From Mizuhopecten yessoensis (Eukaryota), in contig NW_018408899.1 of the NCBI RefSeq assembly GCF_002113885.1, positions 1,904,453 to 1,968,452 of the forward strand: a DNA stretch of 64,000 nt. The letters are read 5' to 3'. Positions 3,001 to 51,270 of this stretch are shown here, in pieces. The notes below the pieces were generated by a model that saw only the letters and a list, made by a program, of their open reading frames with translations, searched no databases and was not told the origin of the DNA. Every line of letters begins with the position of its first letter. Within the stretch, counting starts at the first letter, position 1. The position numbers and the translations under genes are program-made.

Positions 3001-4955
3001 ATATCTTTTGTAAAAACATCTGGTCATTTTAAAAACATGAGTTTCACGGATCACACAACAACATTTTAAGTGGTATTGAAACTCTTGATGCTTTTAGCAT
3101 TCTACCATCGTAACAAAATGAATTCAATGACAATGACAACTATATCATGATCAACAAAGAGCTATGACGAAGAGCAATGTTAAATATTTACATATTATAA
3201 TATATTATAATAAGCATACATACATCAACACATAAAAGAATTTGAAAAATAATGTAGGTTATCAATTTCGCATATTAATACGAGACCCATCATTTTAACT
3301 GTATGATGCTACATGTATAACTGAGTCGTAACTGTACCAGGGTGAAACAGACAAATTACCAATAGTCCAGAGCGTATGTTACAAATGACCGGATTCATAC
3401 CTGTACAATCAGATTTTATATTGGAAAGTGTGTTGGCGCAATTTTAAGCTAATAATTCAAGGGAGATAATTCTTACAAAAACTATGAAAAGAATATTGAA
3501 ATCGAACATGAATTTTTTTCACTATTTTACTTTTTCTTTTTGACCCCATCCCTCTGCCCTCTTATTTGATATAAAAGGTGCCACTTGCATTTATACAAAA
3601 ACAGATCAATATTGACATAGGGTCTTTCAAACAAGATTGCGTGAAAATCCGTTTTATAGTAAGAAAGATCAGACTTTTAATACTACCACCATCATCACTT
3701 CTACATTTATAATGCCAAGCTTTTGTCTGATTATATGGACTGGTCTGAATTAACCAGGTGAACAACCTTCCGATTCCTCAGCAGTGTTCAACTTTGTATT
3801 TCTGTATTTCAGTGGTGCTTCGTGGTTTTTTTTTTTTTTTTGTTAGATCACAAAAATATTTTACAACTAATTTACATACTCTACATGTAGATAATTTGTG
3901 TTCCAAGTAGGCACCCTATACTCGCCTTAAGGTATTGAAAATATCGTTTAAACTGCTGCTGTCGCCACTAAAAGCTGCTAGACTTTTCCGCATTAAAAAC
4001 CTTTTGAAGCCAAGTTTCAAAGATTCTGTGTAATCAAAATACATGACCAGTCTTAGGGTATTTCATCTGTGCTCACATTAGTGACGAACAGCTGTTGTAA
4101 GCTCATGTTTTCCTCAAAATATAGAAGTGTGAAACCAGTTTGGTTATCACATAATGTTTAAAGGACAACGTGAAACATGTCCATGGGTGAAATAGCTTGT
4201 CACAAATGGTGTTTGGCTGAAAAGTGACATCTGAACACCAGATTGTATGCACACTCACACCCATGAATATCACAAATAATGAAAATATTACGTGGTCATA
4301 TACTTCTTAAGTATCCGTGTAGAGACTATAAACAGGAAAACTAGAGGAAAATGCTTCCAATTCCCAGAATGATGACATGTATTTCCATTGGATATCACAA
4401 CAAAGCCAACAATGCTGACTGCGGGTAACAGATACATGCAAAGCATTATGATTTTACCTTTACACTGTTTAAAACAGGTTCTCATTCTGGTGATCTGGCT
4501 TGACCCGTGTACCAAGACCTGTTAGCTTAATGCTTTGTTGTGATATGTCCAATGGCAATACATGTAGATATCATTATTTTAAGAAATTTGTAGCGTTTTT
4601 TCAAAGTTTTCTTGATAATAATAACTACATGGATAGTTCAGGAGTACATGTATGCAGTTACTATTCTATATTATTTGTAATTTCGAGGATGTGCTAAACA
4701 TTCCTGTGATAATTAAATGTCTTTTCTGCCAAAAACAATTTTATTTTAAGCAAACATATTCTTCAATGGTCATAGTTTACACTGTATTGGATACACGATT
4801 ACCAAAATGATTCAATCCTTTTTATTTTGAGAAAAAATGATGAACTCATCACAAATTTCATACAGAGACACAAACCTGGAAAAAATACTGTGTCACTAGT
4901 GTTAGAAAAAGCCGGAGTCCTTCCTGTATTAAAAACCAACTTGCTGTTACCATTA

Positions 4956-6278
4956 AACAAGAGGCCCAATGGGCCTGCATCGCTCACCTGGTATTAATCT
5001 CACAATTGTAACCTTAAAAATGTACCAAAATAAAGCTACAGTCAAAATAGCAGTGTCTTGACTTAAAGTCATTCAGAAGAACCTGTTAAACGACTTAAAT
5101 ACATTTGACACTGTGACCTTGAATGTCAAACATTGACATTAAGTTGAACAAACTGTATAGCCCTTCATCCCAGAATGCAACTTGCCAAATATCACCACCC
5201 TATACCTTTTGCTTATTGAGAAGATGACTTCTAAAGATTAGCACTATGAGCCAGATGTGACCTTGAAAGTGTGTCAAGGTCATTCACATGAACAATCAAT
5301 CACCCTGGACGCTGTAGTTATTCAGAGGTTGTTTAGATATTACAATTGACCCCTGTGACTTTGAATATAGGTTAAAGTCATGCATTTGAACAAACTTGGT
5401 AGCCCTTCATCCCAACATCCTTCTGGCCAAAAATTATCACTCTGGACCTTTTGGTTATTCATAAGAAGTCGTTTAAAGATTTCAACATATTTGACCCCGT
5501 GACCTTGAATAAGAGCAAAAGGTCATTCATTTGAACAGACTTGGTAGCTCTACGTCCCAACATCCTTCTGGCCAAATATCATCACGCTGGACCTTTTAAT
5601 TATGCAAAAGATGTTGTTTAAAGGTTTTTAGGACAGTTGATCCCTGTGACCTTGAATATGGGTGTAGGTAATTCATTTGAATAAACTTGGTAGCCCTTTA
5701 TTCCAGCATGTTATTGGCCAGATATCATCGCCCTTTACCTTTTGGATATTCAGGAAAGTCGTTTAAAGATCAACATATTTGACCCCAGTGACTTTGAATA
5801 AAGGCGAAGGACATTCATTTTAACAAACTTATTAGCCCTTTATCCAAGCATGCTACTGGCCAAATATCAACACCTTATGTCTCTTGGTTATTTAGAAGAA
5901 GTTGTTTAAAATTTTAAACATATTTTATCCCCCTGTGACCTTGAATATGGACGAAGGTCATTCATTTGAACAAGTTTGGTAGTGCTTGATCCTAGCATGT
6001 TATTGGCCAAATAGCATCACCCTGTGCATTCTGGTTATTCAGAAGAGGTTGTTTATTTTTTTTGCATAATTGACCCCTGTGACCTTGAAAATGGGCAAAG
6101 GTCATTCATTTGAACAAACTTGGTAGCCCTTTATCCTAGAATGCTACTGGCAAAATAGCATTGCCCTTGGCCTCTTGGTTATTCAGAAGAAGTTGTTTAA
6201 AGTAAAAGGTTGACACCGGACGGACGGACGACAGACGGACGACGGACGGACGACCGTCCTTTGGGTCAGGTGAGCTAA
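4956..6278 (-). mobile_element. Non-autonomous Helentron-type element (HINE/pearl-like) with internal ~146-bp tandem array
   Basis: AACAAG terminus, hairpin AGGCCC...GGGCCT, subterminal IRs GCTCACCTG (4982) and CAGGTGAGC (6267), (GGAC)n microsatellite at 6217-6255, and about 7 tandem ~146-bp units. Confidence 0.8.
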
Positions 6279-8629
6279 AGAGTAGTGCTTAACTTATCAA
6301 ATTAAGTTACAAATGACCACTGTCTTAACTCCATTATGTTCTAAATGGCTCTAATAATTGTGACAGATTTGGATTTTGATACAATTCAAGGGAGACAAAT
6401 CTTACAAAAATAAATTGAGAAGTGTCTCGAGATGAACAGTTACGATTGATGAAGCTCAAAGACGAAACTAATCAAAGTGTACAATTAACAAATAATACAA
6501 ATCAAAATAAGAGAAAGTTATACTTGGTGTCTCAAAATCTATAAATTAACAAAGCTAGATTGGACCACTTCATTGTCTTTCTCATTAGAATCAACTGTTT
6601 TTGTAAAAAATGTTTGAACAATTATATTTTTCTTGAAGTGCAACATACGTTCGTAACGACTGTGATTAAATCAACGGAAATAAGCTGAAGAAATCATCTA
6701 CATTGTATCTTTTAATGAAAATTATGATTACTTTAATTAAGGATTAGATACAATGCATTTTGGTTATTAATGTATAAACAGCTACAATATATAATTCAAG
6801 AAGCTTCAGAGAAGAAATTCCTTAATGTTAAAGGAATTCATAGCATTTACCAGATAAAAACATGTTTCAACTGTAAGATTAAAAGCAAATTAAATGAAAA
6901 TCTGACCAAATAAAGCTCAAAATAAACCCTTCTTTTATCTTAAAAGTTTCCCCTTTTGTACCCAACGCTTCCTCTTTTGAACTGAATATTCCTTTGCCCA
7001 GGGTTTCTTCAACTAGTAATAAGATAAATTCCATTTTGCCTCTCTAAGCTATTGGATCATAGTATCATGACCATGACCACACTATACAACTGCCAGTATT
7101 ACTAGTGTACTAATTCTATGTAATTATTGGATCGATCAGTTCTGTCGAGACCTGTTTGTACTGAGATCACGTGGTTATACTGTAAACACGGGTGAGCCAT
7201 ATGTAGGATAGATTGAGTTGTGTATTGGTAAGCTGGCTCAGTCATGTGGTTCCTTCGAATATCAATACATACTTTGCGTTATATTTCCTGGTGTAGGGGT
7301 TCGACCCCCGCACTGACCCACAGACGCAATCCGGTTACTGGTTGTTTTTTTTTACTTTTATTTGTCATAATTGACTTATGAACTGGTCGGATGACATTAA
7401 TACATGTGTTACTTTTAGCTTTTTTTCATTATATTTCATATGAATAAAACGCAATACACTAACAAAATACGAATATATTTCTATATTATCTTGTAGATTA
7501 AAATCCTGTATTTCGTTTAAAACGTTATGATGTAATATAACCTATTCCATATTCATTTACATAGATGATGTGTTGTGTTCATACTGACTATTTTAAAGGC
7601 ATTTAAAAGGTAAAAACAAACTACTGCCAAAAACATACATCATATGTAAGAGGAAATCGTCTGTTATTGTGTGTTTAACAGTACATTTTGGTGTAAATAT
7701 TTCTTCACTCAAACACATTTCTACATCGGTAGTTTGTTTACCGTACTGTTCTCAACGACCATGAAATAATCTCAAGGTTTCATCTTAATTTTAATTGTTG
7801 ATTAATTCAATATTTTAAAGGGAGTGAGTTCCGTCAGCCTACGCTAATTATAATTTATTCTTATTCAAATTTTAACTAAGGCTAAGATTCGTTCATGATC
7901 CTAGAGTCGTAAGTTGATGTATGCTCTGTTGCAGATGTTATGAGGAAATGATTTAATTTCAAAATATCTTGATGTTTGTAAAAACATCTGGACATGTTTA
8001 ACGCCTGTTCGTAGATTCTGTGCATTCTAAATACCGATTATGTCACGTGAATGTTAGAGCATCAATATTTCTAACAGAATAGTGATACAAATAGTTTGAT
8101 GTTAGTTACCATGAGTTTCACGGATCACACAACAACATTTTTAGTGGCATTGAAACTTTTGATGCTTTTAGCATTCTATCATCGTGACCATTGGGCAAAT
8201 ATTTTGCCAATGACAAAAAAAATTGAATTCAATGGAGTCATACCTGTACAATTAGATTTTATATTGAAAAGTGTGTTGATGCCGGTTATAATTCAAGAGA
8301 GACATTCTTACAAAAAACTATGAAATTCAAAGAAAACATTAAAAATAATGTTCAATTTCAACCAGTTTTTAACTATATTTGTTTTCTTTATGACCCCATC
8401 CTTCTGCCATCTAAGGTGAATAAAAAGGTGCCACTTTCATTCATACAAAACATATCAATCTTGACATAGGGTCTCTCAAACAAAATCGAGTGAAACTCCG
8501 TTTTATAGTAAGAAAGATCAGACTTTTAATACTACCACCATCATCACTTCTACATTTATAATGCCAGGCTTTTGTCCGATTATATGGACTGGTCTGAAGA
8601 TACAGACCTATATAAGCTTATTTCATTAA

Positions 8630-8800
8630 CCAGGTGAACAACCTTGCGATTCCTCAGCAGTGTTGGACTTTGTATTTCTGTATTTCGTTAGCCAGGCGAA
8701 CAACCTCACGATTCCTCAGCAGTGTTAAACTTTGTATTTCTGTATTTCGTTAGCCAGGTGAACAACCTAACGATTCCTCCTTGTATTTCTGTATTTCGTT
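8630..8800. repeat. Three tandem ~61-bp units
   Basis: ccagg.gaacaacct..cgattcctcagcagtgtt..actttgtatttctgtatttcgttag x3; single copy at 3754-3810 in the sister duplicate. Confidence 0.8.
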
Positions 8801-10183
8801 GGTGCTTCAAATCTTGATATATTTTTTGTGTAAGATCACAAAAATATTTCATAACTAATTTACATACATGTAGATAAGTTTTATTCAAATGGATTTAAAA
8901 GAAATAGCAATCAAAAATATTTTGTAAACAACTATCAAAAAAATAATCATAATTATGCGAAAAGAGATCGTCTTTTGTTAGTGTGATCAACAGCTGAATA
9001 CTCAGAGTTTACAAAATGAAACAAAAAAGTGTGTATGTCATGTCCTAGATATTTGGATTTTATATGTTAAACGATAGAGTTTTACAATGGTATTTCATCT
9101 TTGGTCGTATGCTAGATGCTTCTTTCCAATCGGTCAAAAATGTATATCTACATTACTCAAAAACTTCACAGCCGTCAAAGTAATTTCCCTTTCCGTGTAA
9201 AGATTGGAATTGGTCCTTGATGATTGTTCTGTAGCTGTTTTTGTTCTTGTTCGACAGAGTGTATTGGACCTGATAACATTGTAGGCACCCTATACTCGCC
9301 GTAAGGCATTGTAAATACCGTTTAAACTGCTGCTGTCGCCAGTAAAAGCTGATAGACTTTTCCCCATTAAAAACCTTTTGAAGCCAAGTTTCAAAGATTC
9401 TGTGTACTCAAAATACATGACCAGTCTTAGGGTATTTCATCTGTGCTCACCTTAGTGTCGAATATTTGTTGTAAGCTCATGTTTCCCTTTAAAAATAGAA
9501 GTGTGAAACCAGTTAGGTTATCAAATACTGTTTAAATGACAACGTGAAACATGGCCATTGGTGAAATAGCTTGTTACAAATGGTGTTTGGCTGTAAAGTG
9601 ACATCTGAACACCAGATTGTATGCACACTCTCACCCATGAATATCCCAAATAATGAAAATATTACGTGGTCATGTACTTCTTAAGCATCCGTGTAGAGAC
9701 TATAAAAAGGAAAACGAGAGGAAAATGCTTCCAATTCCCAGAATGATGACACGTATTTCCGTTGGATATCACAACAAAGCCAGATACACGCAAAGCATCA
9801 TGATTTTACCTTTACACTGTTTAAAACAGGTTCTCATTCTGGTGATCTGGCTTGACCCGTGGACAAAGACATGCTAGCTTAATGCTTTCTTGTGATAGGT
9901 CCAATGGCAATACATGTAGATTTCATTATTTTAAGAAATGTGTAGCGTTTTTTCAAAGTTTTCTTGATAATTGTAACTACATGGATAGTTCAGGAGTACA
10001 TGTATGCAGTTATTTTTCTATATCATTTGTAATTTCGAAGGATGTGCTAAAAAGTCCTGTGATAATTAAATGTCTCTTCTGCCAAAAACAATTTTATTTT
10101 AAGCAAACAGTTTCTTCAATGGTCATAATTTCATTGTTTTGGATACACGATTACCAAAATGATTCCATCCTTTTTATTTTGAG

Positions 10184-10807
10184 GAAAGTTGTTTACATAC
10201 AACAATTGATCCCTGTGACCTTGAACATATGTGAAGGTCATTCATTTGAACAAACTTGGTAGCCCTTCATTCTAACATCCTTCTAGCCAAATATCATGAC
10301 CCTGGACCTTTTGGTTAATCAGAAGAAGTCGTTTAAAGATTTCAACATATTTGACCCATGTGACCTTGAATATGAGCAAAACGTCATTCATTTGAAAAAC
10401 TTGGTATCCCTTCATCCCAATATCCTTCTGGCCAAATATCATCACACTGGACCTTTTGGATATTCAGGAGAATATTACACAAGGCTAAGGGGAAGTAACT
10501 CATGAAGGAAACATCTCATACACCTCATACACACTTACACACACATACAAGTACATGTACAAATACATTAATTTCAGCATATAGATACACTATCATAGAC
10601 AGATATTGGCAGTCTTAGACCAAAAGTTTAAACATACTTGACCCATGTGACCTTGAAAATGGGCAAAGGTCATTCATTTGGACAAACTTGGTAGCCCTTC
10701 ATCCCAGAATGCTACTAGCCAAATATCATTGCCCTACGCCTCTTGGTTGAAGTTGACACCGACCGGACGACGGACGGACGACCGTCCTTTGGGTCAGGTG
10801 AGCTAAA
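10184..10807 (-). mobile_element. Partial duplicate of the HINE at 4956-6278
   Basis: Same ~146-bp units, (GGAC)n, and the identical ccgtcctttgggtcaggtgagctaaa end; the left end is deleted. Confidence 0.78.
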
Positions 10808-11880
10808 GAGTAGTGCTTAACTTATCAAATTAAGTTACAAATGACCACTGTCTTAACTCCATTATGTTCCAAATGGCTCTAGTAATTGTGACAAATTTGG
10901 ATTTTGGATACAATTCAAGGGAGACAAATCTTACAAAAACAAATTGAGAAAATCTTACTGGGTGTCTCGAGATATAAACTGTTACGATTGATAAAGCTCA
11001 AAAGAAGATACTAATCAACACAAATCAAAAATTGAGAAAATTATACTTGGTGTCTCAAAATCTATAAAGACAAATACCTTGGTTACTTAGAGATGGAGAG
11101 TTACGATTGATTAAGCTCCAAAGTAGAAATTCATCAAAGTGTACAATTAACAAACCTTGATTGGACCACTTCATTGTCTTCCTCATTAGAATCAACTGTT
11201 TTTGTTAAAAAATGTTTATACAATTATTGAATCACCATATTTGATTATTTACTGAATTGGAAAAATTGAATTGAATTTCAATTACAAAAATCAATTCCAT
11301 ATTTTTATCAAAACAGGTTCAACAATACCGTAGTCAATCGTCTCCTTTTGGAAGTATGAAAATGGCTCTACCTACAAAATAGATCAGTCAATACTTTAAT
11401 GTTTGCTTTAAGTTATTCATTACCTTTTATCTTTTATGGCACTGAATGTAAATAACAAGATACAATATGCAGTGCTACCAAAACTATTTAACAACAAGTG
11501 GGCTTGTTAAATGAAAACCGTTCAATAACTTCACTACACAAAACATGCCCTATGAATGACAAAATGTGCATTTCAACAAATAAAACAGCTATCCAGACTA
11601 GACTAGTTCAGTGTAGAGAATAATAGTTTCTAAATGAACCTGAACACATTAACAAGAACAGAAAATACATGTACAAACAAACAAAAAGTTAGAATGAATG
11701 GTCAAAATATTTATTTAGAAAGATCACACAATAAGTTCCATATTCAACATAACAATGAAATTATAATTGTCGAGACTAAGTCAAGACATGTAAATTTTTT
11801 CAATTTTAGTTCTATATTTTTTTCAATTGGTCGTATTTGCTTATATGAGCATTATTTTCATTGACAAAAAAAATAATCTT

Positions 11881-22000: not shown

Positions 22001-25000
22001 AAGTGACAGGGTGATGTTCTTAAAGAAATAAAATTGAGGACAAACACAATTTGCAGCAGAATATTTATTTAATACGCTAGATATATGTTGTATATGGAAT
22101 TTGTTAGGGTGTGAAAGAAGTATGTTTTGTGTTCTTGTCCTGTACTCTATTTGCAAGTATTTTATTTTCCCATTGCCCTTCCTATTTATTTATTTATTGT
22201 TTGACTGATGGATGTTGAATGAGGACCCTCCTGTGTGAGGACACCATATTGTTCAAGGGCTCCCCAACCCTGGTATCCACTATCAAAATATTTGTATATG
22301 TATATATATATATCTTCTGCGAAGCAGTATATGTATATATATATACATATTTATGAAAAAAATGTCTGGAGGAATAAAAATATTTGTAAATCCATGCACA
22401 TACTCTGCCAATCATCGCTCCTCAGAGACTGGGCTCTACTCAAGCGTATAGTAGGCCAATCATGGCTCCTTATATAGACTGGGCTCAATCCATACATGTA
22501 TGTATCGTCTGCCAGACATGGCTCCTTAAAGACAGGTTTCTTTTTATATAATCTGTCAAACATGGCTCCTTAAAGACCAGGCTTTATCCATCAGTTTAGT
22601 CTGCCAAACATGGCTCCTAAGAGACTAGGCTCTATCCATGTGTATATAGTCTACCAATCATGGTCCCTTCGAGACTGGGCTCCATCTGTGTGTGTAAAGT
22701 CTACCAATCATAGTCCCTTAGAGACTGGGCTCCATTCGTGTGTATATAGTCTACCAATCAGACAGAGTCCCTTAGAGACTGGGCTCCATCCATGTGTTTA
22801 TAGTCTACCAATCATGGTCTCTTAGACACTGGGCTCTATCCATGTGTATAGTCTGCCAATCATAGTCCCTTAGAGACTGGACTCTATCCATGTGTTTATA
22901 GTCTACCAATCATGGTCCCTTAGAGACTGTGCTCTATTCGTGTGTATATAGTCTACCAATCATAGTCCCTTAGAGACTGGACTCTATCCATGTGTATATA
23001 GTCTACCAATCATGGTCCCTCAGAGACTGGACTCTATCCATGTGTTTATAGTCTACCAATCATGGTCCCTTAGAGACTGGACTATATCCATGTGTTTATA
23101 GTCTACCAATCATAGTCCCTTAAAGACTGGACTCTATCCATGTGTATATAGTCTACCAATCATGGTCCCTTAGAGACTGGACTCTATCCATGTGTTTATA
23201 GTCTACCAATCATGGTCCCTTAGAGACTGGACTCTATCCATGTGTTTATAGTCTACCAATCACGGTCCCTTAGAGACTGGACTCTATCCATGCAATTAAT
23301 CGTCCAATCATGGCTTTTCAGAGGCTGCGCTTTACCATGTGTACAGCCTGCCAAACATTGCTCCTCAGAGACTTGGCTCTTTCCATGTGTATTGTATTCA
23401 AAGCATGGCCCCTTAGAGTCTGGGTTCTGTCCATGAGTACAGTCAGCCAAACATCGCTCCTCAGAGACTTGGCTCTATCCATGTAGATACATGCATGTAG
23501 TCTGCCAATCATGGTTCCTCAGATGGTCTCTGTCCATGTGTTAAATCTGCCAAACATTGCTCCTTCAAGACTTGGCTCTATCCATGAGTAAAGTCTGCCA
23601 AACATGGCTCCTTAGAGACTGAGCTCAACCATCCATATAGTTTGTAAAACATGGCTCCTTAGAAACTGGGTTGTCCATGCATATAGTCCGCCAGACATAT
23701 CCCTAAAGACTGAGCTCTATCGAAAGGTATAGTCTGCCAAACATGTTTCTTAAGAGACTAGGACCATCCATGTGTAAAGTCTGCTACCTTAGAATCAATA
23801 CATGTGTGATCATGTAAAACATTACTCCTCAGAGACTTGGCTCTATCCGCACATATAATATGCAAATCATTGCTCCTTAAAGACTGAGCTGTATCCAAAT
23901 GTAAAATCTGCCAAACATGGCATCTTACAGACTGGGTTCTGTCTATAGGTACAGTCAGTCAAACATTGTACCTTGGAGACTTGGCTTTATCCATGCGTAT
24001 GTTTTTCCGAAAATGGCTCCTTAGAGACTGGGTTCTTTCCATGTGCATATAGTTTGCCAAACATGGTACCTCAGACACTGGGTACTATCCATAGGTAACG
24101 TCTGCTAAACATGGCTCCTAATTAAACAGGGATGGAGATTAGGATTCATCCCTGCATATGATATGTAAATCATGTTTCCTAAGAAACTGGGCTCTATCAT
24201 CATGTCATACCAACATGCGTTCACTAATGACATATTTCATCGCCAAATAGCCATGTAACTGATTTTACACGTCAGATAGGTATATATTATAAGGAAAGGT
24301 ATATTAAACTCTAGCCTCATGATCCCCATTACCAGTAATAGGATGCCCCAATATAAGCGGTTGTATGGACACCATGCAGTTGAAAATTCAGTGCTTCGCA
24401 TGAAAACCAATTAAAGGTTTAATGAATGTTACAGCAAATGTGAATCATTTCAACATATCCATCAATTAAAAACATAAATGGGGAGGATAGTCTCCTGTTA
24501 GCTCAGATGAATAAGTCGATCAGAATCAATATCACTGACTTATTACACAAGGGAGACGGCAATGCAAATGATTAACTATTGTCGGTCAAAGATAATTAAA
24601 CTGGTATTTATTATTTACTTTGAAGCATATTTCCTGACAATATCTTACATTTGAACCAAATGATTGGATTAGGCAATCACATGTCCAAAGGATGGGTCTA
24701 TACGTATGCTGTTTTCAGACATAACTAATAGATGGACAAATCTATCCGTGCCTGCTTCATGTTATTTATACCCAGCAAGTCATTCATATTGAATGAACTC
24801 ATAGATTGACAATTGTTTGCAATAACAGATCTCTTGACAACTTAAAACGGTGACAGCATACACAACAGGTGTTAACTACGAAACATTTAGGAAACGTTTC
24901 AGTGCTCTAAAGAACAGACCAAGTGATACATTGATGCACATATAGGCTGTTATTCTGTAGGAAGTGTATTTATGTACAGTGAACAACAGTACATGTATGT

Positions 25001-28000
25001 CGAGCCATGTTCCGAGTACCTTACATCATGTTCATGGTAGTCTGTCTACATATCATCAGTGCTAATACGATGGACGACGTGAAAACATTGCTGGCGGACC
25101 TGATGGGGAACTATTCGGTGGAGGTTCGACCTGTAAAGGACCAGAGTATGCCGGTATATGTTGATGTCGGCATGAGTCTCATATCCATCAATGACTTCAA
25201 TGAAGTGACCGGAGTTATTTCAGTTGTTGCTGTTATATCTATTTCTTGGAGGGATGAAAGTCTGGTGTGGAATCCCTGGAGTTATAACAATACAACACTT
25301 CTAACATTTTCACAAAAACAAATATGGGTTCCAAAAATGTACTTGGTGAACCCAGCAAGTGAGTTTAAACCCATCAGCAATAAGCATTTTAAAGTCACTG
25401 TATTAGCCAATGGTTTTGTTAATTGGGCCCCTGGAGGGGTACTTCAAGCCACTTGTACACCTGATGTTTCTAAATTCCCATTTGATGTACAGACATGCAC
25501 AATTTTACTAAATTCATATGGATACGGTACAACACAGGTTTCTCTGACCACGCAGGTACCAACGATTAATTTCAGTTTCTTCTCAACTAACACTGCCTGG
25601 GACATTATATCAACTAAAACCATCGTAAACTCGATCATAGTCACCGATATTGCTTCATTTTCCATCACCATGAGCAGGAGACCGTTGAACTTCATAGTCA
25701 GTGTTGTGATCCCAATCATCATGTTGTCTCTGGTCAATCCGTTTGTATTCATTCTACCGTTCAATTACGGTGAACGAACGTCGTACAGTATCACAGTTCT
25801 TCTAGCGTTCACGGTGTATATGACAGTGGTAAGTGACAGGATGCCGGCCTCATCCGATCCAATCTCCCAGTTATCGTACTATCTACTCTCAATGCTTGGT
25901 CTTAGTGTTCTTATCGTAACCATGAATATATTTCAAATCAGAACATACAGCAAAGATGACAACCAGGAGCCAGTTCCACAGTGGATGAAGAAGTTTGTGA
26001 TGAATTGCAAGAAAATTTGCCAAAGGGGCAAAGCGGATAGCAAATTTAAACTGCAACAGGACATAAAACAAACTTCAAGCAGAAATGAACCTGTCAAAAA
26101 CAACAAAATCATTCGTTTACATTCAATCGATGAGACAGATATTGCAAGCAAACAAGCAACTCCAAAAGAAAACGACGGAAGTCAAACTGACTCATTACAG
26201 CACGAAAACGTCACTTGGCATACTATTGCTCAATATACAGACAAAGCTTATTTTGTTGCATTTTTGGTTTTCACGGGTGTTTCATCTTTGGGATATTTCA
26301 TGGGAGTTATCATGTGAATTATTTCTGAATTATTCACTTGATTGTACTGCTGCTGGTATATTTTGTGTTTTGAAAACTACATGTTTTAATTCATCAAAGT
26401 AACAATTGTTATTTTGAAGAAATGTGTTGTGGAACAAAATAGTTATTCATAACCCTGTTTCTACAGTGAAGCTGACAGGGCACAAATTAAACACAGAGTA
26501 GATGTATGTGTTAAATGTATTGATAAGGTTTTATCAGATCTTTGTTTTTTACAATACGGGATAGAAGAAGATTGGTTAACAAATTGGTATTCGCAGGAAA
26601 AGGAGGAAGGGAATTATAGGAACTATAATGATCCCTCACATGATATGTGTAATTATTAATGTTGAAATAAATTTCGTGGAGCACGCAGATATACAATTTC
26701 CCAACAGGAATTAACACATTCACCAAGGAACTCATTCGGGGATTGTGTGACAGACAGTTAAACATTCAAATGGATATTTCATTACATAGACCAAATCAAT
26801 GGAAATCAGTTTAGACGTTAAAATGTGATGCTATGCTTTATTTAATGAGTTATGTATAATTATTTTAATCATATCGTCATATTACCACCAGAAAATCATT
26901 TACAATTATAGCAATAGCTAGGATGAAGTCTCTTGATGATAAAATGGGATCATAAATAAAATCAATCTTGACAATGTTTATTATAACAAGAGGCCCATAC
27001 CGAGTCTATACACATACACATCTATTTGTCATGTATATGATGCCCTAAGCAAACATATCACTCTCTCTGTCTTGTACATGACATCTTAAAAACACATACA
27101 ACTCTCTCAAGACTTGGCTCTTTCTACCCGTTTTGTTTAACAAACATGTCTCTAAAAGGCTTGGCTCTATATATTCGTACAGTCTGTCAAAAATGGCTCC
27201 TTAGAGACTCGGCTCTATCTATCCATAAAGTCTGTCAAACATGACTCCTTAGAGACTCGGCTCTATCCATGCATATAGTCTGTGAAACAAGATTCCTAGT
27301 CTCTGTCTTGTAAGGGTCTTAATTTTTGATACCATCAAGATGTTATTCCGTAATGAAAATTCTAATTGAATTTGAATAAATTTCAAACAACAGTTATTGA
27401 TAAAATATTCTAGCCTATTGTTAAGAATAATCTACAGAAGAGGATTTGTTTTTGAAACCTTGGCCTATTGGTCACAAATCGGTACTGCCATTCTGGCCAT
27501 GACGAATGCGAAAAACAATGATGGTAAAATTAGGTTGTCTTTGGTCATATAGATGCAAGCAGCTGCCTTTCTCACATTCGGTTCCTGAGCTTTTTTGAAA
27601 AAACAATGTTAACAAGTAAATTGCTTGCAGACAGATGAAGCAATAGGACAGACAAAAGACAACCATGATAGGTCACACGTGACCTCATCTCAGGGGACGT
27701 TAAAATCTGTGTTAAGGATACCCATCAAATTTACAACACAAAACCTATCAACGATAGTCAGTCAACTTTAGAAAGCTTATTTTCATGTGTATGCTTGGTG
27801 TTTAAAACTTTGTAAATAACTACATACTGTAACTGATCTGCCAATAATCATGTACACAGACTATCCTAGGGAGTTGTACAGCAGGTATTTTCCAGTTTAT
27901 TTCGTTTATTTCACATTCAGTTTGTCATGATTACATTCACATCAAAAACTGTATATACGTCATGAATTATCAGATTTGATAATCATCATGTCATACCAAT

Positions 28001-31000
28001 ATGGATTCAATAATGACATATTCTAACAGGGTAATAGCCACTATAATAAGGATATGGTGTCTGTATGGATACTAATGGGTTGGAAATGCATTGCTTTGCA
28101 TGAAAATCAGACTTGCTGGTGACCATGTGATTCAGACTTCAGGGATCCAGGAATCAGATTCTGAGAGTAGTGTATAATGATCCTCACATTATATGTGTAA
28201 TGATTAATGTTGAAATAAATTGTGCGCAGCACGCAGATATACAATTTCCCAACACGAATGAACACAATCAACACGAAAGTCCTTTTGGGGTTGTGTGACA
28301 GACGGTTAAACAATCAAATGGATATTTCGACCCAATCAATGGAAATCATTTTCGACATTAAACTGTGATGCTTTGCTGTATTTTACAAGTTATGTATAAT
28401 TAATATATCGCTATATTACCACCAGAAAAGAATTCACAATTATTACACTAGCTAGAATGAAATCCCCTGATGATTAAATGGAATCATCCATGAAATCAAT
28501 CCTGATAATGTTTATTTTAACAAGAGATCCAAATCGAGTAAACGCATACAAATATATTTGTTATGTATATGATGCTTTAAGAACACAAACAACTCTCGAG
28601 ACTGTACTCTTTCTATCCGTATAGTCTGCCAAACATGGCACTCAGAGATTGGGCTATATCCGTATAGACTGCCAAACATTTTTATTTTTTTCATATTTTT
28701 TTCAGACAATCTTATACTTGAGGTACTGTCTGAGGATGGAATGCATCAGCTCCGTTCCTTTACATACTCTCTTAATCAAGAATACGACATATTCAAATTG
28801 TATCCGATACTTTATGCACCTCTGTTCTGCAAGAAGGCTTTGAATTAAGCTAGATGTATCTTACCAGATTTTTTTTATTTAATTCGTTTAAATAACCAGT
28901 TGATCATTAATGCAAAATTTGGTTCACATATTTAACTTGCATAAAGTTACACATAGAAAAATCAATCTACAATATATTGACCGGAATTAATTGAAAAGGG
29001 GATTGGGGAGAGAAAATTGGTTTACTTAATTTTAATTCATAATCTTTGATAAAAGAGGCTTCCCTGTCATACTTTTTTGCTATGTTTCTTTCGATATTAT
29101 ATGGTGTTTTCAGTTTATTGATCAGAGTAGTAGGTAGGTAAAGTTCTTTACAAAAACGCTTTTGACAATATATGTAGTTCTTCATTTTTAGAATTATGAC
29201 ATTTTCTGCCCTGTTATTCAGATGTTGATTTTGTGTTGTTTTACCAGAAATAAAATCCTTTTTACATATATTAAAAGTCACATTACAAGTAGTTTGAATC
29301 CAAATTTGGAAAGCAAGAATTAAATTTTGGACTTTATTACATTCCCATAGTACATGCTGAATAGTTTCTTTTTCTATGAAGCAAAAATTACACATTGAAA
29401 ATTGAACCAAATTAATCTTTTTCAAAAAGGTGTTCGTAACTAAATTGTGATGATTTATTCTAAATTGCAGCCATTGTCGTTTTGAATTTGTATTAGTGTC
29501 AAAAGGTAGTTTGTATGTTTTCTTCCATTCCTCAAATAGTATATTTCCAAATATATTATTCCACTTTATTTGACCTATAGGCAATACATAGTTTTTGTTC
29601 AGCACATTGGACATATCTTTTGTACCCTTTTTATGTTTGATAATTATATTAATGTACAGTGGTTTCGATGGTAGTGTAAGCTTTTTTTCAAAGTTCCAGC
29701 CTAATCTTCTTATTGCAAAAATGAGACCATTATAATCAATAAAGTTAGTATTTAAATTATTAATTTCATTAAACTCATTTAGTTGAAGGAAACTGCCATC
29801 TTCCTTAGTAAGATCATTTATAAAAAACACACCTTTATCAAACTACTGCTTATAATACACATTATTATTGCCTATTTTGATTAAATCATTACACCAAATG
29901 GGTAGAGATAATATTTGTTCTGGCCGAGATATATCAATTTTCACCCTTAATGTATTCCACGCACTAGGAACATCAATCCAAAATTTGTTATGAAGTCCAT
30001 TTTTGATAACATATTCAATATATATCTATTTCCTAAAGTTAACAGTTTATTCTTATTAATTTTTGTAAACAGTACTGTCTGCCATGTTGATTTTAGAGCC
30101 ATTTCAAAATGTTTGATATCAAACATTTCAAACCACCTTCTTCATGATGTTTGACAATGACATCTACTTTTACTTTAGCTATTGGACTTCCCCAAAGGTA
30201 TTTATAAAACATATTATGGATTCTCTCATTGCAGTGTGGTTAGGTAAAGGTAATCCTATGAATAAATGTGTAAGTATTGGTAAAAGTAGTGATTTTATTA
30301 CAGTAATTCTGCCTATCGGAGTTATATATCATCTATTCCCTCGGTTAATCAATGACTTACATTTCTAAATTTGGTCTGAAATTGAATTAAAACTATTTTA
30401 TTAAGGCCAACATCAAAGTGAATTCCTAACAGATTAAAATGTGTTGACCCCCATGATAGAGCAAGATTATTGACTAATTTTTCTGTACTATAATTTTTAC
30501 TCCCTATCCATATTACATGGCTCTTATAGATGGAGCTTTATCTATCCTATGGTCTGTCAAACATGGCTCCTTAGAGATTGAGCTTAATCCTTCGATATAG
30601 TCTGTCAAACATGGCTCCTTAGAGACTTGGCTCTATCTATCCAAATAGTCTGCCAAACGCTGCTCGTTGGAAACTTGTCTCTATCAATCCGTATAGTCTG
30701 CCGAACATGGCTCCTTAAGATTGAGCTTAATCCGTCGATATAATGTGCCAAACATGGCTCTTTAAGGACTTGGCTCTATCTATCCAAATAGTCTGCCAAA
30801 CGCTGCTCGTTGGAAACTTGCATGGCTCTATCCATCCGTATAGTCTGTCGAACATGGCTCCTTAGAGATTGAGCTTAATCCATCGATATAGTCAGCCAAA
30901 CATGGCTCCTTAGAGATTTGGCTCTATCTATCCAAATAGTCTGCCAAACGCTGCTCGTTGGAAACTTGGCTCTATCCATCCGTATAGTCTGTCGAACATG

Positions 31001-34000
31001 GCTCCTTAGAGATTGAGCTTAATCCGTCAATATAGTCTGCCGAACATGGCTCCTTAGGGATTGAGCTTAATCCGTCAATATAGTCAGCCAAACACAGCTC
31101 CTTAGAGACTTGGCTCTATCCATTTGTATAGTCTGACAAACATGGCTCCTAAGAGACTTGGCTCTATCCATCCGTTTAGTCAGAAAAACATGGCTCCTAA
31201 GAGATTTGGCTCTATCCATCCATATAATCTAACAAACATGGCTCCTAAGAGACTTGACTCTATCTATCCGTATAGTCTGAGTAGCATGGCTCCTTAGAGA
31301 CTGGGCTCCGTCCGTCCGTATAGTCTGTTAAACGTGGCTCGTTTGAAACTTGGCTCTAGATCTATCCATCCGTATAGTCTGACAAACATGGCTCCTAAGA
31401 GATTTGGCTCTATCCATCCGTTTAGTCTGACCAACATGGCTCCTAAGAGACTTGGCTCTATCCATCCGTATAGTCAGACTAACAAACATGGCTCTTAAGA
31501 CACTTGGCTCTATCCATCCGTTTAGTCTGACAATCATGGCTCCTTTGAGACTGGACTCCGTCCATACGCATAGTCTGTTAAACATGTCTCGTTGGAAACT
31601 TGGCTCTGTCCATCTGTATAGTCTGACAAACATGGTGCCTAAGAGACTTGGCTCTATCCATCCGTTTAGTCTGACCAACATGGCTCCTAAGAGACTTGGC
31701 TCTATCCATCCGTATAGTCAGACTAACAAACATGGCTCCTAAGAGACTTGGCTCTATCCATCCGTTTAGTCTGACAATCATGGCTCCTTTGAGACTGGAC
31801 TCCGTCCATACGCATAGTCTGTTAAACGTGTCTCGTTGGAAACTTGGCTCTATCCATCCGTATAGTCTGACAAACATGGTGCCTAAGAGATTTGGCTCTA
31901 TCCATCCGTATAGTCTGACAAACATAGCTCCTTAGAGACTCGGCTCTATCTTTCCGTAAAGTCTGTCAAACATGGCTCCTTAGAGACTTGGCTCTATCAA
32001 TGCGTATAGTCTGTGAAACAAGATTCCTAGTCTCTGTCTTGTAAGGGTCTTAATTTTTGATACCATCAAGATGTTATTCCGTAATGAAAATTCTAATTGA
32101 ATTTGAATAAATTTCTAGCAAAAGTAAACCAGATCTAACTAAAATCTTTATTGATAAAGTATCTTGGGACTAACGGGTAATTTGTTCTAGCCTATTGTTA
32201 AGAATAATCTACAGAAGAGGATTTTTGAAACCTTGGCCTATTGGTCACCAATCGGTACTGCCATTCTGGCCATGACGAATGCGAAAACAATGATGGTAAA
32301 ATTAGGTTGTCTTTGGTCATATAGATGCAAGCAGCTTCCTTTCTCACATTCGGTTCCTGAGCTTTTTTGAAAAAACAATGTTAACAAGTAAATTGCTTGC
32401 AGACAGATGAAGCAATAGGACAGACAAAAGGCAACCATGATAGGTCACACGTGACCTCATCTCAGGGGACGTTAAAATCTGTGTTAAGGATACCCATCAA
32501 ATTTACAACACAAAACCTATCAACGATAGTCAGTCAACTTTAGAAAGCTTATTCTCATGTGTATGCTTGGTGTTTTAAACTTTGTAAATAACTACATACT
32601 GTAACTGATCTGCCAATAATCATGTACACAGACTATCCTAGGGAGTTGTACAGCAGGTATTTTCCAGTTTATTTCGTTTATTTCACATTCAGTTTGTCAT
32701 GATTACACACACATCAAAAACTGTATATACGTCATGAATTATCAGATTTGATAATCATCATGTCATACTAATATGGATTCAATAATGACATATTCTATCG
32801 GGGAAATAGCCACTATAATAAGGATATGGTGTTTGTACGGATACTAATGGGTTGGAAATGCATTGCTCTGCATGAAAATCAATTAAGGGTTTAAAATGTT
32901 ATATCAAATGTAGATTTTTTCTCAAAATTTGCACACCAGGTCATTTTGAAGTTAATGTGAACTGTTTCAACATAGACATCAATAAAAACATAATTGGGAA
33001 GGATAGTCTCCCATTAGCCTATCTTAGATTAATATTTCATATCGGCCAATCAGAATCAATATCACTGCTTCATAATTACACAGGGGAGACGGCTATGCAA
33101 ATTATTAAATATTGTCGGTCAAAGATGACTAAACAGGCATTTAGTATTTACTTTGAAGACATGGTCTTGGCGCATATTAATCAATATTTCCTGAAAATAT
33201 CCAGGCTTAGCTGTGGAACTAAATGAATTATTAGGACATCATATTGACACAGGATGAGTCAATACGTATGTTGTTTTCAGTCGTAACCAATAGAAGGCAG
33301 GATTATGACAAACATAACCGTGCCTGCTTCATATTGTTTATACCCAGCATGTCATTCATATTGAACGAACCCAGAGCTAAGCAATTTTTTACAATAACAG
33401 TTACTTACTTGACAACGAAAATCTGCGACTGAACTTCTAACAAGTGTTAACTACGACATCTTCATTACTTTTGACTGTTCGTAATAACAGACTTGAGTGA
33501 TAGATTGATACAGATATAGGCTGTTTGTTTTGTAGGAAGTGTATTTATTAATGTTAGGCAGAGCCATGTTCCGCGTATCTTACATCATGTTCATGGTAGT
33601 CTGTCTACATACCGTCAGTGCTAATACGATGGACGACGTGAAAACATTGCTGGCGGACCTGATGGGGAACTATTCGGTGGAGATTCGACCTGTAAAGGAC
33701 CAGAGTATGCCGGTATATGTTGATGTCGGCATGAATCTCATATCCATCAATGACTTCAATGAAGTGACCGGAGTTATTTCAGTTGTTGCCGTTATATTTC
33801 TTTCTTGGAGGGATGAAAGTCTGGTGTGGAATCCCTGGAGTTATAACAATACAACACATCTAACATTTTCACAAAAACAAATATGGGTTCCAAAAATGTA
33901 CTTGGTGAACCCAGCAAGTGAGTTTAAACCCATCAGCAATAAGCATTTTAAAGTCACTGTATTAGCCAATGGTTTTGTTAATTGGGCCCCTGGAGGGGTA

Positions 34001-37000
34001 CTTCAAGCCTCTTGTACACCTGATGTTTCTAAATTCCCATTTGATGTACAGACATGCACAATTTCACTAAATTCATATGGATACGGTACAACAAAGGTTT
34101 CTCTGACCACGCAGGTACCAACGATTAATTTAAGTCTCTTCTCAACTAACACTGCCTGGGACATCATATCAACTAAAACCATCGTAAACTCCGACGTATT
34201 CACCGATTTTGCTTCATTTTCCATCACCATGAGCAGGAGACCGTTGAACTTCATAGTCAGTGTTGTGATCCCAATCATCATGTTGGCTCTGGTCAATCCG
34301 TTTGTATTCATTCTACCGTTCAATTCCGGTGAACGAACGTCGTACAGTATCACAGTACTTCTAGCGTTCACGGTGTATATGACAGTGGTAAGTGACAGGA
34401 TGCCGGCCTCATCCGATCCAATCTCCCAGTTATCGTACTATCTACTCTCAATGCTTGGTCTCAGTGTTCTTATCGTAATCATGAATATATTTCAAATCAG
34501 AACATACAGCAAAGATGACAACCAGGAGCCAGTTCCGCAGTGGATGAAGAAGTTGGTGATGAATTGCAAGAAAATTTGCCAAAGGGGCAAAGTGGAAAGC
34601 AAATTTAAACTGCAACAGGATATAAAACAAACTTCAAGCAGAAATGAACCTATCAAAAACAACATCATTCGTTTAGATTCAATCGATGAGACAGATATTG
34701 CAAACATACAAGCAACTCCAAAAGAAACCAACGTTATTCAAACTGACTCATTACAGCACGAAAACGTCACTTGGCATACTATCGCTCAATATACAGACAA
34801 AGCTTATTTTGTTGCATTTTTGGTTTTCACGGGTGTTTCATCTTTGAGATATTTTATAGAAGTTACCACATGAATTATTTCAAATGCATTACAGGTGGTA
34901 TACTTTGTAATTTTTTTTTAAATTTTATGTAATAATTCATGTGATTTTTCAGAAATGTGTTGTAAGCAAAATAACTAGTCCTAAGCCTAACAGACCACCA
35001 TCTGGACAGCTCTACAGGAATGTTCCTACAGTATGGCTGACAGGGCACCAATTAAACACAGAGCAGATGTATACGGTGTATAAAAAAACATAATTTAGGG
35101 AACTATAATACAGGAAAATTTCTTTTTTGACTTTTAAGCATTAAATAAAGTTTCATCAGATTGAATTTCTTCATCTTTGTTTTATGCTGAATTTTTACAA
35201 TACGGGATAGAAGAAAAATGATTAACAGAACAGGAGGAAGGGTAATATGGGAAAATGTAATTATGGTAAATATAATGATCCCTCACATTATATGTGCAAT
35301 TTAGTAAACTGTGATGCTTTGCTGTATTTCACCGGTACCGTTTTATTTTTATATAATCATATTATCGCCAAAAATCATGTTTGTGATGTATTTAAGAATG
35401 CATACAACTCTCTCTGTCATGTTTGTGATTTCGTTAAGAATGCATACAACTCTCTCTGTCATGTTTGTGATGTCGTTAAGAATGTATACAACTCTCTCTG
35501 TCATGTTTGTGATGTCTTTAAGAATGCATACAACTCTCTCTGTCATGTTACTGATGTCGTTAAGAATGCATACAACTCTCTCTGTCATGTTTGTGATATC
35601 TTTAAGAATGCATACAACTCTCTCTGTCATGTTTGTGATGTTGTTAAGAATGCATACAACTCTCTCTCTGTTATGTTTGTGATGTCTTTAAGAATGCATA
35701 CAACTCTCTGACGTGTTTGTGATGTCATTAAGAATGCATACAACTCTCTCCATCATGTTTGTGATGTCGTTAAGAATGCATTCAACTCTCTCTGTCATGT
35801 TTGTGATGTCGTTAAGAATGTATACAACTCTCTCTGTCATGTTTGTGATGTCGTTAAAAATGCAAACAACTCTATGACGTGTTTGTGATGTCGTTAAAAA
35901 TGCAAACAACTCTCTCACGTGTTTGTGTTGTCGTTAAGAATGCATACTACTCTCTCCATCATGTTTGTGAAGTCGTTAAGAATGCATTCAACTCTCTCTG
36001 TCATGTTTGTAATGTCGTTAAGAATGCATACAGCTCTCTGACGTGTTTGTGATCTCGTTAAGAATGCATACAACTCACTCTCTGTCGTGTTTGTGATGTC
36101 GTTAAGAATGCAGACAACTCTCTCTGTCATGTTTATGATGTCGTTAAGAATGTATACAACTCTCTCTGTCGTGTTTGTGATGTCGTTAAGGATGCATACA
36201 ACTCTCTCTGTGATGTTTGTGATGTCGTTAATAATGTATACAACTCTCTCTGTCATGTTTGTGATGTCGTTAAGAATGCATACAACTCACTCTCTGTCGT
36301 GTTTGTGATATCATTAAGAACAAATACAACTCTTTCTGTCTTCAAGTGTCTTGTTTGTGATGTTTTTAACAACACACAAATCTCTCCGTCATGAATGTGA
36401 CGTCTTTAAGATCACATACATATTTCAGTCATGTGTGTGATATCTTTAAGAATTCAAATATTCCTTTATTTTTATTTTTTCTGTCACATGTTACCAAATA
36501 TCACGACTGGAAATCTCAAAAGAAGAAAGCCATTTTGGTATCCCTGTACCACTGCCAAAAATTGTAACTAAGAGATATTGGCTAAATAAGCTTTAATGAT
36601 TATTTCTAAAAGGAAGACCATATTTTAGGGGACTTGTGTGAAAAATATAAAAACCATGATTAAACAAAATATATTATCAACAACAGTATTTTGAGTGTAA
36701 AACTTTAGCCAGGCCAGACTGGCATTCCAACCCTGGACTTCAGGTTGTTGTACTATCATTCTAACAGACTCAGCTATCTTGTCAACGGAAGTGCCCTAGC
36801 TGACATATAACTGTGAACTAATTACTGCATTACGAAAAACTTTGGGGTAGTCGGACAGGGATCCTTAATTTTCTCTTAGATCAACAGATCACTTTATCAA
36901 ATATACACTACATACTAGGACTGTAGGATGAATACTATGTTTACTACTGTGCTAGGATAAAATGTTTAACACTCCAACATGTACACATTTTAGACACTCT

Positions 37001-45149: not shown

Positions 45150-46681
45150 AGGTAAGAACACTGCAATTGCAACACAAACATGAACATAACAGCTACACTA
45201 ATATCACTTTCACTTCTTGCCACAACCAAGTCGAACACATTCCACAAACATAGAACACATATACACAACAACACACTCGGCTTCGACGAAAACAGACTCG
45301 CCCAACACGAAGAACACGACGCACCACTCACACTATTCCCAGCAATATCCACACGTCTCAAACACAAACACATTAAACCAAGCAACTCTTACATCTTTAT
45401 CCTCCTACTCGCAATATCATCAGACACTGAACTAAGCCCAGGGCCCAGAGCATGCGGAACATGCAACAAAACCGTCACATGGCAAACAAATGCTATATGC
45501 TGCGACACATGCGATACATGGTACCACACCAACTGCCAAGGCATGAAAACATCCTTCATGTATACTATACTGACATATCATGGGAGTGCATACAATGTGG
45601 CATGCCAAATTTTTCATCAACACTTTTCGATACCACATCAATACACTCCACAAACATATTTTCAGAACTAGATTCGATAAATTCCATAGACGACCCCACA
45701 AGCCCAGGCCCTCCAACAGCCACTTCCTCTCTCATAAAAAAACAACACACAACAACTCAACACAAACTCGACAATCCAATACGCATCACAACAATTAACT
45801 TCCAATCCATATCCAACAAAAAGCCAGACCTAGAAGAAATAATCCACGCAATCAAACCAGACATCATCATAGGTACGGAGACATGGCTAAATAGCACAAC
45901 TTCATCATACGAATACTTTCCAATAACACAGTACACAGTATATAGAAAAGACCGCACACCAAACGCAAAAGGACAAAGCCACGGTGGAGTACTACTCGCT
46001 ATCACAAACAAATACATCTCGCAACAACTTCCAGAATTAGAAACAGATAACGAATCCATTTGGGCCAACATCAAAATGTCAAACTCACATAACTTCATAG
46101 TAGATGCATACTACAGACTACCATCAGACAAAGGACATTCACTCACATAACTCGAAATATCCCTGAACAGAATAGGAACACAGAACAACACAATAACATT
46201 TATTAGCGGAGACTTCAACCTCCCACACATAGATTGGTCAAACAACACCACAACACCAGGCAAACCAGACACAACCCTATATCAACGCCTTCTAGACATC
46301 ATCGACGATAACTACATCACCCAAACCATAGACAAACCCACAAGAGGAGAACACATCCTTGACCTAACACTCACAAATCGTACATCCATCATCAATAAAC
46401 AAGAAATAGTCCCACCGATAGGCAAGGCAGATCACGACATCATATATACAGAAGCAGAGATTAGACTACAAAAATACGCCAACCACCTAGGAACATTAAC
46501 CTACTATATAACAAAGAAAACTGGGACAACATCAGAAAATTCCTCACTAATCTAAATAACAACTTTCAGGACCTAGAACATCAAAACACAGAAGACCTTT
46601 TGGTAAGTTTCAAAACAACACTCCATACATCTACAGAAAAAAACATTCCAATAAATCACTAACATACAAACACAGACTGCC
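45150..46681 (+). mobile_element. CR1/L2-group LINE ORF2, 5' part (2A-like motif, PHD finger, APE endonuclease), degenerate
   Basis: DTELSPGP, then CxxC...[13 protein letters not shown]...WECIQC (PHD, frameshifted), then INFQSI, IIGTETWL, YRKDR, GGVLLAI, YRLP, ISGDFNLPHIDW, PTRGEHILDL, DHD. Stops and frameshifts present. Confidence 0.9.
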
Positions 46682-46872
46682 TGTTGTGTTTGTGAAGGTC
46701 CTTTATCGTAAAGATACAACTCACAACAACACACGACTGCTAGGTTATTTAATGGCGGTTCACAACATACAAATACAGAGCATGCGCAAGGCATAAATCG
46801 GAACCATGCGGTCCGACACTACTTACAGGATAATAATCCGGATACATGTTAACCTTGGACATGAACATAACA
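46682..46872 (-). repeat. Complete 3' LTR (191 bp) of the Gypsy element
   Basis: TGTTATG...CACAACA termini on the minus strand, preceded by PPT AGGGGGAGAAAAG. The first ~90 bp recur at 51176. Confidence 0.9.
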
Positions 46873-47108
46873 CTTTTCTCCCCCTAAGCAAAGGTTTCCT
46901 TTAAACAATTATAAGGATTAGAATGTAGCTTCCCTGGCTCACTGTTCATTAATATCATTGATATTTAAAACTAAAGTTATTGTCCCTTGGTACATTGTCC
47001 ATACATTTTCAATTACCATAATTTGTCAAAATCATCTTACTGGTAACTTATACTATACCTAGTCTTAAACACTATTAATTTTAACAGTTTTTTGAACTCA
47101 TAACTCAT

Positions 47109-51111: not shown

Positions 51112-51161
51112 ACCTTACAGTTTTTCTGTTACAAGTGTTGTTCCGATGTAAGTTTACGTCA

Positions 51162-51174
51162 ATCCTCGTCGCCA
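51162..51174 (-). other. Primer-binding site complementary to the tRNA-Ser(GCU) 3' end
   Basis: Minus strand TGGCGACGAGGAT one base after the LTR; the plus strand ATCCTCGTCGCCA equals the animal tRNA-Ser(GCU) 3' terminus plus CCA (from recall). Confidence 0.8.
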
Positions 51175-51175
51175 C

Positions 51176-51270
51176 TGTTGTGTTTGTGAAGGTCCTTTAT
51201 CGTAAAGATACAACTCACAACAACACACGACTTCTAGGTTATTTAATGGCGGTATCCACACATACAAAAC
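51176..51270 (-). repeat. Truncated 5' LTR of the Gypsy element
   Basis: Near-identical to 46682-46775, then switches abruptly to LINE ORF2 sequence. Confidence 0.88.

Follow-up and report, generated by a model that had tools for sequence, protein, structure and literature searches.

Introduction

Bivalves carry an expansion of intronless, tandemly arranged nAChR-like genes described by Jiao et al. (2019; PMC6896357), with 99–217 such genes in bivalves according to the accessible text of that paper and with largely unknown ligands. The gene pair described here shares with that expansion the single-exon coding region, the tandem arrangement, the ligand-binding and transmembrane (TM) domains, the lineage-specific clustering, and the lack of conservation of binding residues. 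It differs in that pocket-directed divergence and homogenisation limited to the coding region were measured here, whereas the accessible text of PMC6896357 holds no dN/dS, site, or conversion analysis.

The cephalopod chemotactile receptors (CRs) are also nAChR-derived and intronless, have lost the acetylcholine cage and have an apolar pocket (PMC11526382, PMC13174522), and their fast evolution is focused on the orthosteric site (bioRxiv 2025.03.03.641191, 2025.10.28.685082); as far as the available parts of these sources go, all of this is shared by the pair. CRs are further characterised by expression in sensory epithelium and by gating through poorly soluble ligands instead of acetylcholine. 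In the available text of PMC13174522, a chemosensor role of nAChR-derived receptors outside cephalopods is named as an open question. A 2026 preprint, in its accessible part, lists the function of non-cephalopod CR relatives as open, and a transcriptome paper on bivalve tentacles, in its accessible part, regards CRs as restricted to cephalopods. Another comparison is offered by Alpo4 of Alvinella (PMC10338036, available in part), which, like the pair, is an orphan nAChR-like channel of a lophotrochozoan, lacks the disulfide in loop C, and binds a sterol group at the subunit interface. Alpo4, however, keeps its aromatic cage, whereas the pair keeps one aromatic of five. Finally, the accessible text on the red and green opsins (PMC3924837) describes old duplicates that, as is likely here, are alike by conversion and retain differences at functional sites.

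Gene models and channel class

We analysed a window of 64,000 nt from Mizuhopecten yessoensis (all coordinates below are positions in it). An intronless gene for a Cys-loop channel subunit is present there twice, in tandem and with both copies intact. Copy A (25007–26317, + strand; ORF list, Pfam, fold) is a single exon encoding a 436-residue nAChR-like subunit, and copy B (33566–34873, + strand; ORF list, Pfam, alignment to A) is a single exon of 435 residues. The two ORFs lie 8.6 kb apart on the same strand with both frames intact, and are 92% identical in protein and 96% in DNA. Pfam found PF02931 (residues 26–226) and PF02932 in copy A, corresponding to a ligand-binding domain and a four-helix TM domain, which both copies carry. 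The structure model (mean pLDDT 74) gave a TM-score of ~0.7 to nAChR subunits in a fold search of the PDB. Among the matches listed, the best solved-structure sequence match was α7, and the nearest named homologs were scallop proteins with 55–69% identity, with no cephalopod names among them; no CR appeared among the matches listed in three sequence searches and one PDB fold search. With its bivalve host, intronless coding region and tandem array, the pair belongs to the known bivalve expansion. Our search of the scallop's own genome scored at least 96 related loci among 363 candidates; 90 loci were fetched (6 of the 96 matches were left out), and the ORFs of 81 passed the full-length filter. 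Contigs C3952 and C5543 carry near-identical gene arrays (L031/L032, L020/L023), possibly haplotypes assembled twice.

The Cys loop (C150–C164; 25454–25498, + strand) is present in both copies, with its cysteines 13 residues apart and an FPFD motif, and a conservative change (T149/S) directly precedes it; in paralogs L043 and L046, Gly replaces the second cysteine. The M1–M2 linker and pore helix M2 (25766–25840, + strand), with a GER motif and a 9′ Leu, are the same in both copies; L045 has many changes in this region. A GEK-type motif before M2 is described as a cation signature in the part of the literature available to us. Loop C of both copies is six residues shorter than in α7 and lacks the vicinal cysteines, a pair that is also absent from all 35 family members displayed in the alignment. 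Four of the five cage aromatics are lost in both copies: the α7 residues W55, Y93 and Y195 are replaced by V76, V114 and T213, Y188 has no clear equivalent in the alignment, and only the W149 position keeps an aromatic, Y171. An alpha-type nicotinic acetylcholine receptor was ruled out by the missing vicinal cysteines and aromatic cage. Together with the GER motif and the 9′ Leu, these losses indicate that the copies are likely cation-channel subunits without the usual mode of acetylcholine binding.

Elsewhere in the window, the region 46681–51272 (− strand) contains broken gag/pol-like frames, including an integrase-like ORF (47109–48818), is bounded by a 99-nt direct repeat of 94% identity, and presumably represents an LTR retrotransposon. 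The stretches 45431–46555 (+ strand) and 28967–29842 (− strand) resemble fragments of LINE endonuclease and LINE C-terminal regions, respectively, and 53575–53730 (+ strand) probably holds the first coding exon of a gene similar to thimet oligopeptidase/neurolysin. Positions 1790–6625 and 6623–11227 form another local tandem duplication, 74–94% identical in pieces.

Sequence differences between the copies

The original prediction counted ~36 amino-acid against ~10 synonymous changes, and the alignment bears this out with 36 residues, 10 silent codons, and one codon indel; all five motif pairs that it quoted are present. As evidence of selection, the raw 36:10 ratio was rejected and carries no weight, because the neutral site ratio (3.4 nonsynonymous sites to one synonymous) predicts the same. 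Counting 37.5 nonsynonymous and 11.5 synonymous changes on 1008 and 297 sites gives a dN/dS of 0.96 (binomial p = 1.0). By maximum likelihood, the mature protein had an ω of 1.25 and the extracellular domain one of 1.81; these values do not differ from 1 (2ΔL = 0.37 and 0.95), although the pair's value was the highest among 12 paralog clades (0.30–1.03 in the others).

Thirteen amino-acid differences fall inside 25170–25660. The proposed clustering in the binding loops was confirmed within the extracellular domain, where 9 of 63 positions in our loop windows differ and 5 of 142 elsewhere do (p = 0.008). Of the 36 changes, however, no more than 14 lie in this domain. Outside this domain the differences are also dense in the intracellular loop (11 of 89 codons) and in TM4 and the C-terminus (5 of 34), with patches of silent and amino-acid-changing differences at 26147–26314 (+ strand); TM1–3 (3 of 87), like the extracellular positions outside the loop windows, are quiet. 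Loops A and E and the strict loop B (α7 148–154) contain no A/B differences. The long identical stretches that had been pointed out elsewhere proved not to be unusual (longest run 152 nt, p = 0.11), and a spacing test for clustering along the gene gave p = 0.06.

The extracellular differences were compared with the α7 contact residues in Table 2 of a d-tubocurarine antagonist study (PMC3066128, available in part). From this published list we took the ten positions outside loop C in order to avoid a post-hoc choice. S57/N57 (A/B; 25175–25177, + strand) corresponds to α7 S36 in β1 on the complementary face and is on the list; five different residues occupy this position among seven orthologous-lineage sequences. 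In loop D (25238–25243, + strand), S78/F78 corresponds to the listed Q57, and its neighbour I79/L79 to M58, which is off the list. Also off the list is L98/H98 (25298–25300, + strand), at the position of α7 T77, which we take to lie near the pocket. The two changes ascribed to loop B (25505–25537, + strand) both exist, L167/S167 at the listed K145 and Q177/K177 at S155, but both flank the core by alignment; the core between them, with Tyr at the W149 position, is the same in both copies. In loop F (25571–25579, + strand), F189/L189 corresponds to α7 I165 and F191/L191 to the listed G167. Loop C, placed by alignment to the other copy and α7 (25631–25651 in A and 34190–34210 in B, + strand), has four amino-acid differences and one silent difference within seven codons, for which two or three mutational events may suffice. 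At the α7 K145 and D197 positions, A has L167 and I215 (25505–25507 and 25649–25651) where B has S167 and F215; from the alignment, the change in size at one position seems to be offset by that at the other, on the neighbouring strand.

Binding-pocket positions

The pair was picked because it was striking. At the ten contact positions, four differ (the α7 S36, Q57, K145 and G167 equivalents), compared with 6 of 186 other extracellular positions (p = 6 × 10−4), and contact positions and loop C together account for eight of the 14 extracellular differences. With the gene's synonymous rate as reference, ω at the ten positions was 6.7 (p = 0.008 versus 1) and in loop C 12.5 (p = 0.0004); elsewhere it was 0.49 at other extracellular sites and 0.53 in TM1–3. 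The excess over 1 at the contact positions is computed from 4 replacements and 11.5 silent changes, and its p value depends on the neutral rate assumed: 0.012 with the gene's silent rate, 0.05 with the intracellular-loop rate, and 0.068 with the upper 95% bound. Broad loop windows, set by α7 boundaries, gave ω > 1 at only p = 0.07 despite their enrichment. Our own 30-position pocket list (ω = 5.4, p = 0.0005) was set aside for the published one, since it was made after the differences had been seen.

The substitutions had been read as diversifying selection on ligand specificity. The concentration at the pocket speaks for this reading, as does the rejection of family-wide ratios described below, while the overall dN/dS of 0.96 does not, and the blind M2a–M1a comparison on the pair was not significant (p = 0.54). 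A and B differ at pocket positions beyond chance or family rates, which is moderate evidence of selection directed at the pocket.

Probable conversion of the coding regions

The 5′ flank of A (24437–25006, + strand) is homologous to 32954–33565 upstream of B, with 113 of 547 positions substituted (21%), and its 3′ flank (26318–26500, + strand) to the sequence after the B stop, with 40 of 159 (25%). In contrast, only 49 of 1308 coding positions differ, and four-fold sites differ at 6 of 173 (3.5%) versus 153 of 706 in the flanks (p = 5 × 10−10). Identity steps up 6–7 nt before the ATG and drops ~9 nt after the stop. With flanks 18–25% apart and four-fold sites only 3.5%, gene conversion has probably kept the coding regions alike; the tandem duplication itself would be old (flanks ~20% apart), and its coding region repeatedly converted. 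Among 23 pairs examined, in several of which the flanks have diverged beyond alignment and might mask a similar case, the gap between coding and flank divergence was widest in A/B, followed by L048/L064 (0.10 vs 0.18–0.20). In three genera, the copies of this lineage group by species: A with B, four in Ylistrum, and two in Argopecten.

A frameshifted distant paralog on another contig, L009 (G000:C1046, ~1534489–1535770), is 97% identical to A and B over its first ~150 coding bases, starting just before the ATG. It differs from A at 5 of these 150 bases and at 17–67 per 150-nt bin beyond. By sequence comparison, its start is a clear inter-contig conversion tract, which was also seen in two other DNA runs. 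A third copy upstream, considered because of a loose end in two DNA runs, was rejected, as that end matches the upstream sequence of L009. Minisatellite arrays occupy 22390–24130, 30515–32030, 35300–36460 and 63040–64000 of the window; the same ~49-nt family occurs upstream of A and of B and may have promoted the duplication.

The selection reading had left out gene conversion, which makes pairwise dN/dS hard to interpret. Conversion leaves the pair with a small and uneven silent baseline, of which the ω of ~2–2.6 in the intracellular loop and C-terminus is a sign. Recombination also inflates site tests. We found no peaks of silent divergence beside amino-acid differences (p = 0.23–0.84). Silent sites within 3 codons of pocket changes carry 2 changes per 35.8 sites, where 7.8 are expected at flank divergence (p = 0.016); these neighbouring sites being homogenised, the pocket changes are not leftovers of old unconverted patches. 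In the accessible text on the opsins (PMC3924837), introns are homogenised and an exon peaks, whereas in A/B the flanks have diverged and the exon is homogenised; unlike the opsins, A/B have no silent-site peak around the pocket changes.

Paralog clades and related scallops

The ORFs that belong to 12 close clades, 35 of the 81 full-length ones, entered the site models; copies that were partial or nearly duplicate (L023, L032, L078, L080, L027/L029, L066/L068) were dropped. Over the 11 clades other than that of the pair, ω at the ten contact positions was 0.96–1.02 and not different from 1, compared with 0.79 in loop C, 0.30 in the rest of the domain, 0.16 in TM1–3 and 0.79 in the intracellular loop. 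Contact positions in the family therefore evolve above the disordered intracellular loop and at three times the rate of the rest of the domain, and on our own broader list 10 of 11 clades had a pocket that was faster than the rest. Among the extracellular sites that evolve fastest in the other clades are the equivalents of α7 Q117, Q57, K145, Y93, L109, S36 and D164, which alternate as the strand faces lining the pocket do.

The pair rejects the pocket/rest ratios of these 11 clades (2ΔL = 12.1, 2 df, p = 0.002), and the ten contact positions alone differ from the family ratio at p = 0.043. Of the sites that are fast in other clades, 4 of 7 in the pocket versus 2 of 28 outside it differ in the pair (rate-matched permutation p = 2 × 10−4). 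With site classes shared over the 11 clades, no class with ω > 1 was found (M2a–M1a 0; M8–M8a 0; F3x4). An unshared model placed ~3% of sites at ω 7 (p = 4 × 10−6), a signal to which an alignment error at the N-terminus of clade C3 and the decayed-looking C9 contribute; 13 of its 33 fast extracellular cells lay in the pocket, against 337 of 2248 (p = 0.0005). The L045/L059 pair has a TM ω of 1.8 and may include a decaying copy.

In orthologous clusters of other scallops, contact positions differ at 4/10, 4/10 and 6/10 in Ylistrum and 7/10 in Argopecten, versus 11–27% elsewhere. These data are proteins only, so their enrichment cannot separate selection from weak constraint. The sister lineage showed no enrichment at contact positions (0/10, 0/10, 0/10, 2/10), nor did the closest Ylistrum pair (1/10 vs 4/186 other positions, p = 0.23), and in another, distant pair 6/10 differ (p = 0.05). 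Sites variable in A/B vary again at 5/14 in Ylistrum (p = 0.20) and 8/14 in Argopecten (p = 0.03).

Polarisation of the A/B differences assigned 16 derived changes to A and 8 to B, of which 5 and 4 are extracellular, meaning that both copies changed there. The derived changes of A include Ser254Tyr and Ala241Ser, in the membrane part at two positions that are 96% conserved; at position 254, Ser is the residue of 96% of homologs. Two out-of-frame ATGs (24993 and 24997) just before the start of A could lower its translation. An AG directly precedes AGCCATG in B and L009 and is absent from A there (24990–25007, 33550–33566), and is a possible 5′-UTR splice acceptor. In two raw RNA runs, ~19% of each of which was covered, the B stretch drew 11 and 6 reads in 12.4 million each (17 in total) and A 9 and 4; nearly all of these reads carried B letters, and none was spliced. 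Some of them fall upstream of the ATG, which makes DNA carry-over possible, and three single reads mixing A and B letters were too few to use. Assembled contigs collapse the copies and were unusable for finding alleles; some A/B differences may be polymorphisms.

Discussion

We consider it somewhat probable that conversion homogenised the coding regions while selection fixed or preserved the pocket differences, giving two subunits for two different non-acetylcholine ligands. A retroposed, acetylcholine-blind subunit would have been duplicated in tandem, after which conversion would keep the scaffold and pore of A and B alike, and selection would create or keep the pocket differences while the remainder was homogenised. 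On each face of the pocket between subunits, different side chains would be favoured (Ser/Phe 78, Leu/Ser 167, Phe/Leu 191, and the rewritten loop C), and the outcome would be two ligand preferences, realised alone or in mixed pentamers.

Neutral explanations need to be weighed against this. An acetylcholine-free pocket might drift under weak constraint throughout the family, with A relaxing and patchy conversion and chance doing the rest. The family ω at the ten positions, the lack of a shared class with ω > 1, the pair's overall ω of ~1, and the p values of 0.05–0.07 under a generous neutral rate all suit such an account, as do the signs in A, namely twice the derived changes of B, Ser254Tyr and Ala241Ser, the upstream ATGs, and almost no reads in the RNA runs. 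It nevertheless fails to explain why equally fast non-pocket sites are mostly the same in A and B, why the family's pocket/rest ratios are rejected, and why the silent sites adjoining the pocket changes are homogenised; moreover, both frames are intact, the core ω is ~0.5, and B, the copy with reads, carries four of the polarised extracellular changes. We regard drift as possible but unlikely. The notion that A and B are alleles or an assembly duplicate draws on near-identical loci on other contigs (the L031 and L032 proteins are 100% identical), but is barely credible given flanks 18–25% apart and the fact that two further scallops carry the lineage as clusters on a single contig. Furthermore, coding depth is ~2x flank depth in two DNA runs, so that both copies are present in other animals, and loop F–C haplotypes matching A and matching B both occur in three runs.

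Selection may also have acted on something other than the choice of agonist, such as subunit pairing in heteromers or the evasion of antagonists. Natural orthosteric-site antagonists include algal cyclic imines and predator peptides. The contact list derives from a d-tubocurarine antagonist study (as far as its accessible part shows), its positions line the subunit interface, the at least 96 related loci offer possible partners, and episodic, clade-specific fast sites would fit an arms race. Both copies, however, have already lost the cage with which such antagonists usually interact, and we consider this explanation improbable.

Returning to selection on two ligand preferences, the small and aliphatic residues that replace the cage suggest a bulky apolar ligand, by analogy with octopus CRT1 and the Alpo4 sterol site as presented in the accessible literature; a short loop C would lie over a roomier, more hydrophobic pocket fitting such a molecule. 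The sensory role in the original prediction is likewise an analogy with sensory receptor families. An extended version, in which these genes would form a scallop family of nAChR-derived chemosensors with an origin separate from the octopus CRs, and the pair would split a ligand range for environmental apolar molecules, seems to us rather unlikely. Conversion would then keep the scaffold interchangeable while selection retuned a few pocket residues, and candidate ligands would include predator steroids and algal metabolites. The pair resembles the pocket diversification of the CRs as a parallel that does not imply kinship. Apart from the scallop host, it differs in that its evidence of selection is far weaker than that in the accessible CR literature: the contact-list test is significant (p = 6 × 10−4), while M2a applied blind to the pair is not (p = 0.54) and shared-site models contain no class with ω > 1.

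Our literature search turned up no published test of either selection or conversion in bivalve nAChR-like genes, most subscription papers being outside its scope, and pocket-directed divergence under gene conversion appears, with moderate support, to be an unreported pattern in a known expansion. A and B constitute a ready-made swap experiment, with the same pore helix and only 14 extracellular differences. Beyond the pair, the positions that hold acetylcholine in α7 are among the fastest in the domain family-wide, which argues that the expansion explores ligand space.
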